A stretch of DNA of 64,000 bases from sequence record OP172790; one strand, 5' to 3'. Under the pieces are notes generated by a model. The model worked only from the letters and a program-made list of their open reading frames with translations. It made no database searches and was not told where the DNA came from. Below, piece after piece: positions 1 through 58,890 of the stretch. A program made the position numbers and the translations under genes. The stretch's first letter is position 1. The number at the start of each line of letters is the position of its first letter. Source of the DNA: Escherichia phage ECO319P1.

Positions 1-301
1 AAAATCCCGCCTCTGTTACAAGGCATCCGCCACGTTGCATAAGTATTCACTTCTCCGCATAGTTGAGTATGAAATATTCCGTATGATTTAACATTCTTTT
101 GACCTTTTCTTTTCAGTGTAAGCAATTGATTTGTATGGGATAACATCTCACACGTTAATCATAGTGTTAATTCTATGTTAAATTCGTGTGGTTTATGTGG
201 GTTGATATGTTATTGAATTGTATAGAATCCTTATGAATCAATAGGTTAGCGATAGGGCAATCAAGCTCGCATCAATTAAAGTGAACGGGTATCATTATTC
301 C

Positions 302-490
302 TGTGGATAAGTTAAGGATTAATGAGAAGTTATCCACAATCTGAAGAAATCCACCTTCCCGAAATCCCTGTGGATAACTCACTAACTATCTGTTTTATAT
401 AATCTTTTATCACTGAAATAAGTTATACATTTAACGAAAAAGTTAAGCTAGACGTAGACCTGTGGATAACTAACGTTTCAATGTGGATAA
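302..490. promoter_or_regulatory. cluster of five perfect DnaA boxes with adjacent AT-rich tract; candidate origin or DnaA-binding control region
   Basis: TGTGGATAA at 302-310, 369-377, 461-469, 482-490 and TTATCCACA at 330-338; AT-rich stretch about 380-440; no ORF. Confidence 0.6.
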
Positions 491-683
491 GATGAAAGTT
501 ATACATGAGATAATGATTGACAAGTGATAGGAATGTATGTTAATCAAAGACTTATTCATATTATCAAGATAAGACAAGGTGATAAAAGTCTATATAAATC
601 AATAAGTTATAGAATGAATACACTTTATGACTAACTAAAATCCTTTATAAATCAGTGAGTTAGTAAATAGTTTAAAATACTTG

Positions 684-712
684 TTGCAATCCCTAAACGT
701 TATCCCTAATAT
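684..712 (+). promoter_or_regulatory. sigma70-like early promoter candidate
   Basis: TTGCAA (684-689), 17 bp spacer, TAATAT (707-712). Confidence 0.4.
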
Positions 713-928
713 AGCCAGCGTTGACACGGCAACGGGTTAACAAGAAAGATTAATCAGATAATGATTGACTTTCTCTGATAGGTTAGTAATACTATCAACG
801 CTCTTTAATAATCTGGCTTGTTACTGTTAAATCATTATGATTCTTTCAGTTACCTATAATGTGAGCTTAACTGTTTAAATGTACAGTGTACGGGTGAACT
901 AGGAATTGAAAAAGAATTTAAAAAGTGG

Positions 929-958
929 TTGACAGTGTGAAACAAGCTAGGTTAGAAT
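929..958 (+). promoter_or_regulatory. sigma70-like early promoter candidate
   Basis: TTGACA (929-934), 18 bp spacer, TAGAAT (953-958); upstream of the first plus-strand genes. Confidence 0.5.
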
Positions 959-1011
959 GAGCATCAAGTTAACAGAACAACGTTAACGAGTGAGAGACAA
1001 GAAATTATCTC

Positions 1012-1034
1012 TTATTATAATGTGCAATAATTAC
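1012..1034 (-). promoter_or_regulatory. phage promoter element TAATTATTGCACATTATAATAAG, inverted copy firing leftward
   Basis: reverse complement of 1012-1034 is identical to the element at 40331-40353. Confidence 0.5.
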
Positions 1035-1045
1035 GGGGTAACAGT

Positions 1046-1153
1046 ATGGTTACTTACAGCAATGAATTAACGTCTAAACAGATGTTAAAATCAGCCAACA
1101 AATTTTGGTTGATTGTAGGGTTGACAGTCGCCGCATTGATTGTTATCCTGTAA
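1046..1153 (+). CDS. small hydrophobic peptide (35 aa), hypothetical
   Basis: ATG 1046, stop 1151-1153, predicted TM segment FWLIVGLTVAALIVIL; not in ORF track (under 60 aa). Confidence 0.25.
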   Translation: MVTYSNELTSKQMLKSANKFWLIVGLTVAALIVIL

Positions 1154-1775
1154 GCACAAATTGAGGCGTAGTCACTGCCTCGCTGGTTACTAAGCTGCCA
1201 GTATAATTCGCGGGTCTTTAAACACTTGATTGTGTACCTGTGTATCTGGATTGGTGGAGTATAAAGGCAAATAGTACGCCGCAAATCATCGCGGTAAAGT
1301 CTGCTCAATAGTGTTAGCATGGCGGCTAGTATTGCGTCACTGGTGAAACTCCAGCTAGTGTTAACATATGACTATAAACAAAACAGTGCTGAGGCTGGCT
1401 GTGAGCAAATAGGGCAAAACATCGCCTAACATCCGAGCGTTTCCATTCTCACTTTGAGTTGTGAGACTGACAAGGCGTAGACCTGTCGGGGCGTTCCCAG
1501 CAATACGGGAAAATATGGGGCAAGAGTTTTACGCTTGCAGTTTAAGCGGTTCTCTTGTGTCAATGGTGAGAGGTTTTTGACTCACTAACGACAAACTAAA
1601 AACATGGCGATAAGTTAACAGGTTGATTGAGACTCCGTATACAATAAAGCTCCGCCATTGCCCTACTTGCTAGGGGTCAGAAATAACGGCAAGGATGTTT
1701 GAGTTATGCAATTAGTTAGGCGGCTGTTACATACTAACGATTGCATAGCCCGTCAAACATTAACGAGGAATAGTT

Positions 1776-2120
1776 ATGAGTAAGAAACGTGCAATCGGTC
1801 GCATGATTCATAACGGTGTACAAATTAACAAGATTGTTACGCCGAACATGGTTAAGGCAATCAAACGCCGTGAAAACCTTGTTAAAGAATTGAATACGGT
1901 TATTGACAATGTTGATAAACGTTTCACCTTTGAGCAAGTGATGCGAGCTAAAACGGCTCTGCGTAAATTGTATGCTCAAAGTCATGCGCTTGATGAAAAG
2001 CCACTGACTAACAATAAAGATAGTTGGTGTGCGAAAGGCAAGCGTTACGCAACTGGTAAACAAAAAGCTAAACGTTTACCGTCACAACCACGCGTTGAAT
2101 TTTCACGCAAATCTAAATAA
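1776..2120 (+). CDS. hypothetical basic early protein
   Basis: ORF with AGGAA RBS upstream; Lys/Arg-rich. Confidence 0.5.
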   Translation: MSKKRAIGRMIHNGVQINKIVTPNMVKAIKRRENLVKELNTVIDNVDKRFTFEQVMRAKTALRKLYAQSHALDEKPLTNNKDSWCAKGKRYATGKQKAKRLPSQPRVEFSRKSK

Positions 2121-4283: not shown

Positions 4284-4687
4284 AGAAGCAATTTGTTAAG
4301 TCAATGTTAATCGCATTGACTATCGCCGGTTGTCACCCTGTACCAGCCAGTGCGTCCCCATTAAAGGGAGAGATGCGCGAGATGGCTCTTGAGTTGTGCG
4401 CTAAGTCTGTCGCTGCTAATGACCTGATGCTTGAGTGCATCGAAATGGTGAGCAGTGACTACTATGACGCCGCCATGCAGGGTGGTCAACGTGTGCTTGA
4501 CAAGCGCATTCCCTCTGACAACGAGATTGTGGCTATCACTCGCCAACATCTTGACTGTGATGTTGCTAGTCCAATCTGTCAGCAAACGCAATACAACTAC
4601 ATGACGTGGTTCAAGTATGGAGCCATGTCTATTATGGACAACGACAAAGAGTTTAAGAGCGAAGTTAAAGCTTATTACTCTGAATGA
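4280..4687 (+). CDS. putative lipoprotein (early)
   Basis: N-terminal signal with lipobox LTIAGC; Cys-rich mature part. Confidence 0.5.
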   Translation: MKKQFVKSMLIALTIAGCHPVPASASPLKGEMREMALELCAKSVAANDLMLECIEMVSSDYYDAAMQGGQRVLDKRIPSDNEIVAITRQHLDCDVASPICQQTQYNYMTWFKYGAMSIMDNDKEFKSEVKAYYSE

Positions 4688-11154: not shown

Positions 11155-11180
11155 ATAATTATTGCACATTATTATAAGGA
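11155..11180 (+). promoter_or_regulatory. phage promoter element (TAATTATTGCACATTATTATAAGGAG)
   Basis: one of five copies of the conserved element; directly upstream of a gene. Confidence 0.5.
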
Positions 11181-23952: not shown

Positions 23953-24918
23953 TTGAAATTCGAGAAATTCCAATCTCTCGTAAATGAGTCTATGAAGAAC
24001 GTTGGAGGTTTCCTTCGGGATTCCTCCTTCGGGAAACGTAAGGCCATTGTTACCGAGAAAATCCACGGTGCTAACTTCTCTGTCTACTTCGGTTGTAAAG
24101 ACAATGTGGTTGGTATCAACTTCGCTTCTCGTTCTCAGATGCTGTGCCCTGAAACTAACTTCATGAATTGCCAACGCTACTTCACTGAAGAAAAGATTCA
24201 GGAATTGCTGGAACATGCTTCCACAATCATGGCTCTGGACAAATGTGAACTTCGTATCATCGGTGAAATTTACGGTGGCATGGATATCGCTGGAATCAAA
24301 CCCGTTCAGCGAGAAGTCCACTACTCCGGTGATATTGGCTTCCGTGTGTTCCATGCACAAATTGCCAACAACGAAACTGGTGAAGTCTTTGACTACAACT
24401 GGAAGAATGTGAAAGCTCTTGCCAAAGATTTTGGCTTTGAGGTCGCACCAATTGTGGCTGAAGGTCTGACCTTTGAACAGGCTTATGCACTTGACCAGAA
24501 GGTTAAGTCTGCTCTGTCTGACAAAGACCAGATTTGTGAAGGTTACTGTATCCGCGTTGATGCAGATGAAGAAGGTCAAGCACCTTTAATCTTCAAGAAG
24601 CGTAATACTGAGTTCCTTGAAACCAAGGGCACTGTGAAGGCTCCTCAGAATACTGTAGAGCAGACGCAACTCGGTATGGAAGCAATGGCACGTATTGGTG
24701 CATTCATCACACCACAGCGTGTTTCTAACGTCAATAGCCACCACGGTTTCGATAGTCCAAAAGACTTCCAGAAACTGATGGAAGCTGTACTTGATGATGT
24801 GCTCAATGAGTACAAAGCCGAGTATGACGTAGACCTTCGCAATGAGTTGGTCTGGAAAGAAATTAAGCGTTCAGTTGGAGCACAGGTAGTGCCGCTGGTA
24901 CGTGAAGTTCTGCTGTAA
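23953..24918 (+). CDS. RNA ligase-like nucleotidyltransferase (Rnl2-type)
   Basis: motif I lysine in TEKIHGANF; TTG start after GGAG RBS. Confidence 0.6.
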   Translation: MKFEKFQSLVNESMKNVGGFLRDSSFGKRKAIVTEKIHGANFSVYFGCKDNVVGINFASRSQMLCPETNFMNCQRYFTEEKIQELLEHASTIMALDKCELRIIGEIYGGMDIAGIKPVQREVHYSGDIGFRVFHAQIANNETGEVFDYNWKNVKALAKDFGFEVAPIVAEGLTFEQAYALDQKVKSALSDKDQICEGYCIRVDADEEGQAPLIFKKRNTEFLETKGTVKAPQNTVEQTQLGMEAMARIGAFITPQRVSNVNSHHGFDSPKDFQKLMEAVLDDVLNEYKAEYDVDLRNELVWKEIKRSVGAQVVPLVREVLL

Positions 24919-24944
24919 TTATTGCACATTAATATAGGTTAAGG
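24916..24944 (+). promoter_or_regulatory. phage promoter element (TAATTATTGCACATTAATATAGG)
   Basis: conserved element copy. Confidence 0.5.
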
Positions 24945-24952
24945 ATAATCTT

Positions 24953-25561
24953 ATGTTTTTACTTCTGAATGGCTCCAACATCACTGGTATTTCTTCAAAC
25001 GTTGCTGACTTGGTTGCTCATATTAAGAACCTTCATGATTCGGAAAAGTTGAAGTTTGAAACTCCGAATGCTATTCCAGCTTATACAGTGAATAGCTACA
25101 ACAACGCTACGAATTATGCAGCACAGATGATTCGTAACTTGAAGATTATGAAAGTTGTGGGTGACAACCTGTTGCCAATCAACAACAATCCATATCTCCA
25201 ACTGATGAACTGGCAAGGTCATATTCTGGTTGATGGTGTTACTGATATTACAAGTCAGTACTTCACTGTTGAGCAGACAACTTATGACGGCCCACAGAAA
25301 GTGTTTGCAACGGTTGCTAAGAAGGGCTTGAAGTCTTCAGGTATGGATGTTATTGTTGACCCTAATCAGGTCGGTCGTGGCGTTCGTACACCAGAGCAGT
25401 ATGAAGAGTTGTGTGGAACCTTTGCGAAAGTTAAGGTGTCACTGAATATCAATGCAAATGGTTGGTATGGTGCTACACTGTTCATGAGTGCTGACTCTCT
25501 GACAAACTATCGAGTTGAAACTCAGCAGGTCACTGGCTTCAAAGCAGTGTTCGCAGAGTAA
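24953..25561 (+). CDS. hypothetical protein
   Basis: 202 aa ORF bracketed by promoter element and hairpin. Confidence 0.5.
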   Translation: MFLLLNGSNITGISSNVADLVAHIKNLHDSEKLKFETPNAIPAYTVNSYNNATNYAAQMIRNLKIMKVVGDNLLPINNNPYLQLMNWQGHILVDGVTDITSQYFTVEQTTYDGPQKVFATVAKKGLKSSGMDVIVDPNQVGRGVRTPEQYEELCGTFAKVKVSLNINANGWYGATLFMSADSLTNYRVETQQVTGFKAVFAE

Positions 25562-30043: not shown

Positions 30044-30320
30044 GATTATTAAGTTCTACAGCGACACTTGTGCGCCTTGTAAAGCAATGGCTCCAATCTT
30101 TGACGACATTGCAGAAGAACTGTCCACAGATACTGTGGTATTCGGTTCAACCAACATCGGTGAAAGTGACAACCGCGCTGTTGCTCAGTCATTCGGTGTT
30201 CGTGGTCTTCCGACTGTTGTGATTCTGAAAGATGATGAAGCAGTTGGCATCAAAACTGGTGCTCAGACTAAAGATTCACTGAAGAAATTCATTACCGACA
30301 CAATTGGGGAGGCCAGCTAA
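30036..30320 (+). CDS. thioredoxin
   Basis: CAPC active site; start at ATG 30036 after GGAGAAGG RBS. Confidence 0.7.
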   Translation: MYKIIKFYSDTCAPCKAMAPIFDDIAEELSTDTVVFGSTNIGESDNRAVAQSFGVRGLPTVVILKDDEAVGIKTGAQTKDSLKKFITDTIGEAS

Positions 30321-36539: not shown

Positions 36540-36815
36540 ATGAAAGATATTATGCGTGATATGGAAATCCGTACTTACTCCACTAAAGGTCATTTTGTTG
36601 AAGCGGAAGCTCTGACAATTCTGTACCCGAGTGAAGTTGACCTGTTCGTTGAGGCATTTGTTGATGCCACTGAAAGTGAGTTAAGCTTTGCAGCTAAGCT
36701 GTATCGCTCGCAAGGTAAGCTGGACACCAACGACCATGTAGCACGTACACTCCGCACTAACATCGCAATCCGTGACCCTAAGACTGGTCGCTTTCTGCCG
36801 TGGAGCAAGAAATAA
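36540..36815 (+). CDS. hypothetical protein
   Basis: 91 aa ORF. Confidence 0.35.
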   Translation: MKDIMRDMEIRTYSTKGHFVEAEALTILYPSEVDLFVEAFVDATESELSFAAKLYRSQGKLDTNDHVARTLRTNIAIRDPKTGRFLPWSKK

Positions 36816-39951: not shown

Positions 39952-40333
39952 ACTAAGTAAGAAAGGTCAGGCTCTTCTGGCTACTCGTAAACAGGCACTT
40001 CAAGATGTGATTAATAAGTCCTTTGAGAAGATGCCGTTCGATATCACAATTCTCGCAAGTACAGTGCGTACTGAAGAGGAGCAACGAGCTAACATAGCCA
40101 AAGGTGTGTCTTGGACAATGAAGTCTAAGCACCTCACTGGAGAGGCCGTGGACATGGCTCCTTATCCGGTTGACTGGAACAACCTTGAACGGTTTGTACA
40201 GATGGCTGAAGTGGTTCTGACTACTGCCAAAGAAATGGGTATTCCCATTGTCTGGGGTGGTACTTGGAAAGAAACCACTGAAGGTTGGAAACAGAATAAA
40301 CGGTTCGATGGGCCTCATTTCGAACTGAAATAA
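39941..40333 (+). CDS. peptidase M15 (VanY-like) endolysin
   Basis: SKHLTGEAVD and DGPHFE zinc-binding motifs. Confidence 0.7.
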   Translation: MNVKLSKKGQALLATRKQALQDVINKSFEKMPFDITILASTVRTEEEQRANIAKGVSWTMKSKHLTGEAVDMAPYPVDWNNLERFVQMAEVVLTTAKEMGIPIVWGGTWKETTEGWKQNKRFDGPHFELK

Positions 40334-40355
40334 TTATTGCACATTATAATAAGAG
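40331..40355 (+). promoter_or_regulatory. phage promoter element (TAATTATTGCACATTATAATAAGAG)
   Basis: conserved element copy. Confidence 0.55.
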
Positions 40356-41684: not shown

Positions 41685-41707
41685 GAGGCCTTCGGGCCTC
41701 TTTATTT
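41685..41707 (+). terminator. intrinsic terminator (UUCG tetraloop)
   Basis: GAGGCC-TTCG-GGCCTC then TTTATTT. Confidence 0.7.
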
Positions 41708-46706: not shown

Positions 46707-46732
46707 AAATAATTATTGCACATTATAATAGA
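46707..46732 (+). promoter_or_regulatory. phage promoter element (AATAATTATTGCACATTATAATAGAG)
   Basis: conserved element copy. Confidence 0.55.
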
Positions 46733-46772
46733 GTTCTTTCTTAACACAATTCAAAAGGATTTGTCAATACTT

Positions 46773-57154: not shown

Positions 57155-58890
57155 TAACGATTCCCCTCTCTGAAGTAATCCACATCATAACCAATCATAT
57201 TCCACTCACCTTCCGCTGTATCAAGAATACGGATTGCAGGGTAACGATAGTTGCTGAAGCAGTCTACCTTGTGGTCAGTTTCAATGTCGAAGTCCTGCCA
57301 AGAATCCCATACAGGTGAACCATTCGGGCTATTAGAACCACCAATGAAGAATCGTACAGTACCTTTACCACCCATCTGGGGGTAAATCGTTCTCCACCAT
57401 TTGTGGTACGAGATATCTGGCTCTTGTTCATCGAAATCCAGTGCATCACGTCGTACTTCACAATAAACAGGTCGAGAAGTTACTGTAGTCTTAGCAGGGT
57501 CTAATGGGTTCCAACCCGGCCCACCAATCTTGGTGTAATCATAATAATCTTGCTTATAACCTGTATCAAGCATGTAGAAACATCTGTCCATCGAAGCACC
57601 AAACATCTGGTGTCGGGTAAATGTTTGTGCATACTGGTTCCAAACATCCTCTTTGATATCTTCTGAGTTCCATGCATAGTCATTAACACCGGAAGGGTCA
57701 TAATGCTCCCATGTACGGGAATCAGTCTCTGGACTAATACCAAGTGCGATATCATAGATGTTAGGTAGGTCTGCAAAAGTCCAAGTGTTATACTCCCAAG
57801 ACCAGATGGCTGCTTTGTCACAAGCATATTTATCTTCTGGAGCACTACCTGCTACTGCTGCTGGAGCATTCGTGGATACATAGGTAATCCAAATCTCTTT
57901 TCGAGTAGGGTAGGAATAAACACGAGTTGCATTAAAGTTCGTACTTGAAATCTGATTCATGAGGTAGTCTTTAATACGACCGGTTGCAACAGATTGACGA
58001 GTAGAACCGTTGTGTACGAAAATATCCTCTTCACTGATAACGAAGTGTTGACCTTCAAATTCTACACAACAGTTAGCTGCCAGAATACCAGAGTCAGAGA
58101 AGATTTTACGGAAGTTGAATACCATTGTACCACCTACATAGTCCATGATAAATGTATCACGGTTAGTGTAGATAACGAAGGAGTCACGAAGTGGACGTCC
58201 ATCAATGATGTGAGATTGTGAGTCAGTCAGGTCGTTAAAGCCGCCATCCTTGGTTTCATCATCTTCAATCCAGTCTGGTGGTAAAGTACCAACATATGCT
58301 GTATTCGACCAACGAACACGCTGAGGATAATTAACACCAGCTTCAGTGATGCCCATGCAAAGCAAGTAGGTTTTATAAGCACGAATACGATTTGTCTTCC
58401 AGTCAATTTTTGCCCCACCAGCTTTCTTAGGTTGTCCCCAACCCGGTAGGTCATGAAAGTTCTTTTCGCTTGGTGCAATACCCTGTGGGTCACTTTTGTT
58501 AGTGTTGAAGATAACTGTGTTGGACAGAGTTGTATACTCCCAAGGCTCACCCGGTTCAACTTCATAACGAACTGGATTATTATCTGAACCTAATTTGGAG
58601 ATATTCTTATGTGATACACCCTCTGCACGGTAAATAGAACCTTTGTTATCCGCAGGATTCCAAGTACCGTAAACAAGAGACTCCGTAATTGGCTGTTGTA
58701 CAACCCCTAGAGGAATCTCTTGTGGCATATCACGAAGAAGAGCAGCTTTAGCGCCTCCGATTTTCTGAACTCGATTAGCTTCAAACCGGACGTTATTAGC
58801 CCAAGACCAATCTGAAGGTGTCAAGTCATATGGTGGGATATCAGTTGTTACACCAGTTTTCCCAACATTACGTAAGCGCATAATTGTCAT
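57154..58890 (-). CDS. tail or baseplate protein
   Basis: 578 aa ORF in structural block. Confidence 0.5.
   Translation of the reverse strand: MTIMRLRNVGKTGVTTDIPPYDLTPSDWSWANNVRFEANRVQKIGGAKAALLRDMPQEIPLGVVQQPITESLVYGTWNPADNKGSIYRAEGVSHKNISKLGSDNNPVRYEVEPGEPWEYTTLSNTVIFNTNKSDPQGIAPSEKNFHDLPGWGQPKKAGGAKIDWKTNRIRAYKTYLLCMGITEAGVNYPQRVRWSNTAYVGTLPPDWIEDDETKDGGFNDLTDSQSHIIDGRPLRDSFVIYTNRDTFIMDYVGGTMVFNFRKIFSDSGILAANCCVEFEGQHFVISEEDIFVHNGSTRQSVATGRIKDYLMNQISSTNFNATRVYSYPTRKEIWITYVSTNAPAAVAGSAPEDKYACDKAAIWSWEYNTWTFADLPNIYDIALGISPETDSRTWEHYDPSGVNDYAWNSEDIKEDVWNQYAQTFTRHQMFGASMDRCFYMLDTGYKQDYYDYTKIGGPGWNPLDPAKTTVTSRPVYCEVRRDALDFDEQEPDISYHKWWRTIYPQMGGKGTVRFFIGGSNSPNGSPVWDSWQDFDIETDHKVDCFSNYRYPAIRILDTAEGEWNMIGYDVDYFREGNR

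Follow-up and report, generated by a model that had tools for sequence, protein, structure and literature searches.

Middle promoters of phage T4 that depend on MotA keep the host sigma70 -10 element and replace the -35 by a phage-specific upstream box centred at -30; they are internal, take over from early read-through, and some of them are orphans at the origins oriF and oriG. Promoters of the T7/SP6 type are contiguous stretches of ~23-25 nt in which an AT-rich 5' part is followed by a specificity block, a TATA and a purine-rich start, and T7 phiOL and phiOR have no gene behind them. For promoters that converge, interference has been framed as occlusion, "sitting duck" removal and collision (PMC6593788, PMC5001618).

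The only transcription study of the family considered here, on phage 7-11, found two gene classes only, with no middle promoters and no early shut-off, and left the organisation of sigma gene expression and the long-range read-through open (PMC8948821). Two early promoters, P151-2 and P151-3, were validated in vivo, and the late promoter read by the phage ECF-sigma (gp47) was defined experimentally as GTAAtg-N16-aCTA (Lavysh 2022, PMC8948821).

The window analysed here is a 64-kb stretch (64,000 nt) of Escherichia phage ECO319P1 (OP172790), a Crifsvirus of the Grimontviridae whose first 3 kb are ~91-92% identical to Cronobacter phages A24 and GAP52. A sequence-only reading had placed at its left end a rightward sigma70-like promoter faced by an inverted phage promoter, and had proposed interference with early transcription and possible activation of an origin. 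The proposed device is of a known kind, convergent promoters, and is built from an undescribed element class that is wider than that reading could know. Coliphages 186 (pR-pL) and P2 (Pe-Pc) have facing promoters with starts a few tens of bp apart, as the window would have by prediction; theirs are, however, sigma70/sigma70 pairs in temperate switches under repressors, whereas the window phage is virulent and pairs a sigma70 early promoter with a gene-less orphan of a separate element class, a putative promoter. The 25-nt element has a -10-like hexamer and a phage-specific box in common with the T4 MotA promoters, but its box abuts the hexamer. Its copies are nearly invariant, as those of T7/SP6 promoters are, and our own alignment with the SP6 promoter gives 11 identities in 17 positions, a resemblance that could be chance in AT-rich DNA. 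With the gp47 late promoters of 7-11 it shares low copy number, high conservation, phage specificity, placement before genes and the same phage family, while those promoters are bipartite and the 25-mer is contiguous, lies at other positions and has an inverted orphan (PMC8948821).

The early promoter and the inverted element

Annotation transferred from relatives places the early and middle genes rightward, from 1046 to ~48500, and the late genes leftward, from 64000 down to 48607; the remaining late cluster (gene 1, tRNAs, terminase, portal and capsid) lies left of window position 1 and is leftward too. Positions 1-1045 are therefore part of the ~2.3 kb of non-coding control sequence that separates the early cluster from the late cluster diverging from it. 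The A24 record (MW343794) runs in the opposite orientation, the window being its reverse complement; its first 127 bases equal its last 127, which more probably reflects overlap in the assembly than a terminal repeat. Immediately beyond the left end of the window, A24 777-804 is a perfect consensus sigma70 promoter, TTGACA-16-TATAAT, pointing to the late genes and surrounded by iteron-like repeats (TAGTTATGCA, ATTGAG). The features that matter for the early side are the following.

517-546, + strand: TTGACA with a weak, poorly defined -10; the -35 is kept in three genomes
765-793, + strand: upstream sigma70-like TTGACT-17-AATACT, which a leftward path from the orphan would cross
929-958, + strand: sigma70-type early promoter TTGACA-18-TAGAAT (TTGACA 929-934, TAGAAT 953-958; 11/12)
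967-988, no strand assigned: predicted hairpin GTTAAC-N8-GTTAAC, between the two facing elements
989-1017, both strands: predicted inverted repeat GAGAGAC...ATCTCTT, in which the orphan's AAGAG tail pairs with sequence upstream
1009-1033, - strand: inverted orphan, the 25-nt element TAATTATTGCACATTATAATAAGAG (CACAT 1024-1020, TATAAT-like hexamer 1019-1014, AAGAG 1013-1009)
1046-1153, + strand: 35-aa ORF with a hydrophobic tail, the first early ORF, adjoining the orphan on the right
1121-1149, + strand: sigma70-like TTGACA-17-TATCCT with a TG; it points away from the orphan, 87 nt behind it

Sigma70 early promoters were recognised by a TTGACA -35 and a TATAAT-like -10 with 16-18 bp between them, the -10 having A as its second and T as its sixth base, and the sequence at 929-958 has all of these. 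No other sequence on the two strands of the 64-kb window reaches 11/12, a score for which mononucleotide shuffles give ~1.5 matches (0.086 in 1-1200), and the strong sigma70-like promoter of the earlier reading stands. A24 and GAP52 keep both hexamers, with the optimal spacer of 17; PKM.Hi.22.6 carries TTGACA-18-TAGAAT at the matching position. The counterpart in 7-11 is P151-3, an early promoter validated by primer extension (PMC8948821). Transcription from 929-958 is predicted to start near 963-966. The -35 hexamer TTGACA occurs four times on the + strand of 1-1200 (517, 721, 929, 1121) and never on the - strand; the element at 517-546 is possibly a third early promoter. At 765-793, the upstream flank and the -35 are similar to the orphan-facing promoter of 3H10_20 and Privateer. 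Behind the orphan there is a second sigma70-like promoter in Crifsvirus (1121-1149) and in Privateer, where its TTGACA lies 53 nt from the orphan.

The orphan is a perfect inverted copy of TAATTATTGCACATTAtaATAAGAG and matches 40331-40355 at 25 of 25 positions. Its core is the 16-mer TAATTATTGCACATTA, of which the window holds five perfect copies, four on the + strand (11156, 24916, 40331, 46710) and one on the - strand (1018-1033), which the tail ATAAGAG completes to 1009-1033. Allowing up to three mismatches there are six 16-mer matches, against a shuffle mean of 0.89, and none of 100 shuffles reached six. The orphan is invariant in A24 and GAP52. The element had been reported as inverted and 55 bp downstream of the promoter; it is present and inverted, but the gap from the -10 end (958) is 50 nt, and a count of 55 ends at 1013. 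If the hexamer is a -10, leftward transcription would start near 1008-1006, and the two predicted starts are ~42-45 bp apart (~965 on +, ~1007 on -; closer still in Privateer and PKM.Hi.22.6), a distance at which two open complexes would not easily coexist. No credible ORF was found on the - strand downstream of the orphan. A leftward ORF ending before it, 1320-1054 (88 aa), was rejected as spurious: relative to GAP52, 19 of its codon changes are nonsynonymous and 2 synonymous.

In A24 and GAP52 the hairpin at 967-988 reads GTTAGC...GCTAAC, a compensatory double change that preserves the stem. After their orphans, 3H10_20 and PKM.Hi.22.6 have short AGAG..CTCT repeats as well. The stretch 1009-1166, which includes the 35-aa ORF with the 1121-1149 promoter inside, is almost invariant among three Crifsvirus genomes that are otherwise ~90% identical; the DNA of the ORF is identical in GAP52. 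It is followed by ~600 nt of non-coding sequence (1154-1775) before the first sizeable early gene, a leader comparable in length to that of Privateer. Within 1166-1320, 15 of 25 substitutions relative to GAP52 fall in one codon phase, yet there is no long ORF. An Rfam search of window 1-2000 gave no match, the 1154-1775 leader included.

The 25-nt element across the family

The four + strand copies of the window all stand directly before genes and in their sense, one of them towards the end of the early/middle cluster, and several occupy positions that recur in other genera.

11156-11180, + strand: sense copy directly before a small ORF
24916-24940, + strand: sense copy whose TAA is the stop of the upstream gene; precedes 24953-25561; its position matches the 7-11 copy at 58834
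40331-40355, + strand: sense copy whose TAA is the endolysin stop and whose AAGAG serves the following gene as ribosome-binding site; its position matches Privateer 37434
46710-46734, + strand: sense copy towards the end of the early/middle cluster; matches A24, 7-11 (30500), Privateer (27234) and PKM.Hi.22.6 (34154)

Spacers at these four copies are very short: the leading TAA is the upstream stop in at least two (24916, 40331), and two supply the ribosome-binding site of the gene that follows, as AAGAG or AAGGAG. Reading the hexamer as a -10, with a start 7 nt after it, puts the starts within or after the ribosome-binding sites of several downstream genes, which is awkward for a promoter, and the validated phiEco32 promoter P6 has the same layout of start and ribosome-binding site.

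The motif of Privateervirus (Proteus phages) was obtained by short-query BLAST, and the elements of 7-11 and of the Salmonella phage PKM.Hi.22.6 by de novo k-mer counting. All share one plan: a lineage-specific block of 8-9 nt, CACAT, a TATAAT/TAATAT-like hexamer and AAGRG. For each genome we give the element, the copies and the facing promoter, with the gap from the end of its -10 to the element.

Crifsvirus (window): taATTATTGCACATtataataagag; four sense copies and one inverted orphan; TTGACA-18-TAGAAT, gap 50 nt
A24: four sense copies and one inverted, as in the window; TTGACA-17-TAGAAT, gap 50 nt
PKM.Hi.22.6: agtTAATCCACATatataaagag; three sense copies and one inverted orphan at 4381; TTGACA-18-TAGAAT, gap 29 nt
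Privateer: ATTATTGCACATaatata(ta)agg; three sense copies and one inverted orphan at 87960; TTGACT-17-TATCAT, gap 22 nt
7-11 (Moazamivirus): cagtAAATCCACATAtaataagag; four sense copies and one inverted orphan at 89903; TTGACA-17-TATAGT (P151-3), gap 94 nt

GAP52 has five sense copies and one inverted. Its extra sense 25-mer belongs to a pair of copies, at 30221 and 30564, that flank an inserted endonuclease VII gene, and the element seems to travel with, or recombine at, gene cassettes. Across genera, a copy precedes the homologue of 24953-25561 in GAP52 and 7-11, another precedes the 'MARK...' gene in Crifsvirus and Privateer, and every lineage has one close to the cluster end. The last sense copies of 7-11 (30500) and PKM.Hi.22.6 (34154) have no ORF after them, only the bidirectional cluster-end terminator, and may drive a small RNA of ~60-80 nt.

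Conservation of the element is divided. The downstream half (CACAT, TAWWAT, AAGRG) is common to the lineages and looks as expected for a -10 region of the host polymerase. The upstream half is ATTATTG, GTAAATC or GTTAATC depending on the lineage, and all copies of one genome agree in it, the orphan too, even where their positions correspond to those of another lineage. This concerted change implies a single trans-acting reader whose specificity has shifted. We regard the 25-nt element as a hitherto undescribed, family-wide class that, judged by its motif and distribution, is distinct from both the sigma70 early and the ECF-sigma promoters. The more distant Aeromonas phage LAh_6 (sigma 56% identical) has no CACAT-class element, and the class therefore stops at the Grimontviridae proper. 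An exact scan of IMG/VR with the 16-mer returned 31 single unrelated matches and no relatives. Our literature search found no mention of the 25-nt element; in 7-11, MEME had given no over-represented motif and the class was not reported (Lavysh 2022, PMC8948821).

The orientation bias of the class is strong. All of the ~14 gene-proximal copies in five genomes are in the sense of their genes; the single complete inverted copy of each genome is found, without exception, in its control region. In each lineage that copy stands a short way downstream of a sigma70-type promoter belonging to the early cluster, and faces it, an arrangement that a second Privateervirus genome, 3H10_20, shares with Privateer. 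The opposed geometry described for the window is confirmed, far beyond chance: at the level of sequence it is present in five genomes, with the orphan as a putative promoter, and it recurs in four phage lineages.

These observations bear on two other explanations of the element. The 25-mer could be a binding site for a phage protein, with the orphan, at ~+45 to +70 of the early transcript, blocking elongation from the early promoter and no leftward RNA being made. Sixteen invariant nucleotides are unusual for sigma70-family promoters, and the concerted upstream half implies a specific protein; but a roadblock needs no fixed orientation, while the ~14 gene-proximal copies are sense and the orphan is always reversed, and such a site would have no obvious purpose before 3-5 internal genes. 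The strict sense bias, the conserved inverted exception and the placement before genes favour a promoter over an orientation-blind protein site, and we consider a roadblock unlikely. Alternatively, the element could work at the level of RNA, as an intercistronic processing site or a translational operator over stop codon and ribosome-binding site, with the orphan as an inert relic. The sense copies do span the upstream stop (TAA) and the downstream ribosome-binding site. However, the orphan is never part of a sense transcript and is nevertheless kept and co-evolving in four lineages, the AAGRG tail is conserved in orphans without an ORF, and the element has no stable structure of its own; we hold this explanation to be very improbable.

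Promoter classes and the search for a reader

The inverted element had been taken for a phage promoter, and as a member of the known phage-sigma class that identity has to be given up: the 25-mer does not contain GTAAkn-N16-ACTA, which occurs separately seven times. Matches to GTAA[GT]N-N16-ACTA number seven in the window against 1.5 in shuffles and are all in sense, at the following positions.

26977, 29346, 35757, 40790, 47380, + strand: ECF-sigma motif matches
54821, 60067, - strand: ECF-sigma motif matches

These seven are likely the true phage-sigma promoters here, driving the late genes. We also considered the orphan as a late-operon promoter, as it is the only late-strand copy in A24, and rejected it: the late genes have their own GTAAkn-N16-ACTA promoters, for example P1, at A24 1234-1259, just before the first late gene (PMC8948821 Table S4). 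The orphan is therefore not needed to drive late genes.

A weaker form of leftward expression would have the orphan make a non-coding RNA, or provide read-through into gene 1, the tRNAs and terminase ahead of the late phase, possibly only on concatemers. The orphan points as the late genes do, and these begin ~2 kb to its left; on the leftward strand from the orphan to the first late gene no intrinsic terminator is predicted; and the copy that in 7-11 and PKM.Hi.22.6 is followed only by a terminator indicates that the class may make small RNAs. On the other side, P1 near gene 1 makes such read-through possible but unnecessary (PMC8948821), the path opposes three or four sigma70 promoters, and the product would be 2 kb of untranslated RNA exposed to Rho. 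Furthermore, the orphan is always downstream of an early promoter and aimed at it, rather than placed to its left, which favours interplay with that promoter over a role in leftward transcription only. We rate leftward expression as decidedly unlikely.

The + strand at the orphan can also be read as a promoter, either the sigma70-like GAGACA-16-TATAAT (994-1021) or a phiEco32-like TAATGTG, that would drive the 35-aa ORF, the match to the other copies being incidental. The first scores 10/12, but its -35 and spacing are lost in GAP52, where the 16-mer is invariant, and it was discarded. For the second, a gp36-type promoter of phiEco32 is defined by tAATGTAtA 6-8 nt upstream of the start and is read by a sigma that lacks region 4; the + strand at the orphan, TAATGTGCA, agrees with this consensus at 6 of 9 positions, and at the four sense copies the motif lies on the strand opposite to the genes. 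This identity was discarded as well: the orientation is wrong, the window sigma resembles gp36 over 49 residues only (37% similarity), so that these phages have no gp36-type sigma, and the motif was published as absent from 7-11 and GAP52 (Lavysh 2022, PMC8948821). A 25/25 match to 40331-40355 is not chance, and a rightward reading would have the four other copies fire antisense. A rightward promoter is the least probable of the explanations considered here, and we set it aside almost entirely.

In phiEco32 itself, we noted one perfect inverted gp36 motif, TAATGTATA, at 36704 (+), between genes 40 and 41 and outside the six published promoters. It stands 63 bp from the P40 motif (36632, -), the two being back to back, and points against the middle-gene transcription that arrives there; the early region of phiEco32 has no perfect inverted gp36 motif.

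Two other repeated sequences were observed in the window. The 12-mer ACTACGGTGACG has nine copies, one of them with a mismatch, against 0.37 expected, always in the local gene sense. This polar 12-mer is more widely spread than the CACAT element, with variants in 7-11 (ACTACTGTGACG, nine copies), PKM.Hi.22.6 (seven) and Aeromonas phage LAh_6 (seven). Hairpins with a CUUCGG loop (GCTGCCTTCGGGCGGC followed by a T-run) occur at four sites; that at 41685, just before the sigma gene (41732), matches the 7-11/GAP52 hairpin discussed by Lavysh et al. (PMC8948821).

2763, 3526, 4458, 6113, 9296, 14359, 19863, 46546, + strand: copies of ACTACGGTGACG
61989, - strand: copy of ACTACGGTGACG
36374, 41685, 43748, 47586, + strand: CUUCGG-loop hairpins

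To look for the reader, Pfam and PHROGs were searched with the early and the conserved small proteins, Pfam and PDB sequences with the 1304-aa virion protein, and presence/absence was profiled across 7-11, PKM.Hi.22.6, Privateer and LAh_6. No candidate resembling a sigma factor or a DNA-binding protein came out of these searches; what they recognised was a TraR/DksA zinc finger, a thioredoxin, a WYL fragment and some domains of unknown function, and the large uncharacterised ORFs had no match in Pfam or PDB. In comparison with the T4 middle promoters, no MotA or AsiA homologue was found in these searches, and the only recognisable early gene products are Srd-like and TraR/DksA-like. For a promoter of T7/SP6 type, a gene for a cognate single-subunit RNA polymerase is not recognisable in the window, and none is annotated in A24, GAP52, Privateer or 7-11.

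Possible roles of the backward copy

Left of the orphan lies the region that had been proposed as an origin activated by the leftward promoter.

302-490, no strand assigned: five perfect DnaA boxes (TTATCCACA) within 190 bp, 520-700 nt left of the orphan

There are no other perfect DnaA boxes in the 64 kb. A24 and GAP52 keep the cluster, but the control regions of 7-11 and Privateer lack it. The cluster may be a Crifsvirus-specific origin dependent on host DnaA, or a DnaA titration site. As a conserved role, origin activation does not hold up: the boxes are confined to Crifsvirus, while the orphan is kept in genera whose control regions have none, so that co-conservation of the two (the feature compared, rather than origin activity) fails in 7-11 and Privateer.

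An orphan whose leftward transcription activates or primes an origin within the AT-rich control region would still have analogues in the T4 oriF/oriG middle promoters and the T7 promoters phi1.1A/B and phiOL/phiOR. It would explain why no gene follows the orphan, and its path would meet the five boxes after 520-700 nt on a strand predicted to be free of intrinsic terminators up to the first late gene. However, besides the missing boxes in two genera with an orphan, an origin promoter needs no position downstream of early promoters and facing them, and the relatives have no mapped unwinding element or origin. A replication role thus appears improbable.

What is constant instead is the placement towards the early promoter. 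The conserved head-on placement, in Crifsvirus, Privateervirus, Moazamivirus and PKM.Hi.22.6, favours a functional interplay with that promoter; this part of the earlier proposal is retained, while its premise of a known phage-sigma promoter is not. The layout is probably a built-in switch acting on early transcription. From orientation, placement and conservation we infer promoter activity of the element, leftward firing of the orphan and a negative effect on the early promoter.

For the form of this switch, our leading, though tentative, proposal is head-on occlusion or interference by the orphan that would turn down the immediate-early unit when the reader appears, with the sense copies maintaining the downstream genes. 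Mechanistically, the orphan would be a functional member of a promoter-like element class to which a phage-made specificity factor directs the host RNA polymerase. The sense copies would then start transcription before internal genes, while the orphan, occupied by polymerase or factor or itself firing, would work against the early promoter through occlusion and collision, and antisense RNA from the orphan could act against the leaders of the upstream early promoters. The immediate-early unit (1046 to ~11150) would be turned down and the sense copies would take over the genes downstream. The fourfold variation of the gap, from 22 to 94 nt, counts against an interference model.

The available transcription data were obtained in 7-11, where the 5' ends from the facing early promoters are constant through infection and no middle class is seen (PMC8948821). 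Since the primer used in the primer extension anneals upstream of the orphan, constant 5' ends neither prove nor exclude interference, and they count only weakly against a strong interference at initiation.

A bolder version, to which we assign a small chance, is a third specificity system in the Grimontviridae, in which a factor or an unrecognised polymerase would read the element as a contiguous, T7/SP6-like 25-nt promoter, and the backward copy would be a head-on collision switch that ends immediate-early expression without general host shut-off.

For the family, the 3-5 sense copies per genome are concrete candidates for the missing internal promoters, and the conserved backward copy facing a validated early promoter offers a simple, testable switch. 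If confirmed, it would point to an additional specificity factor and would extend convergent-promoter interference from the lysis-lysogeny switches of temperate phages to temporal control in a virulent phage.
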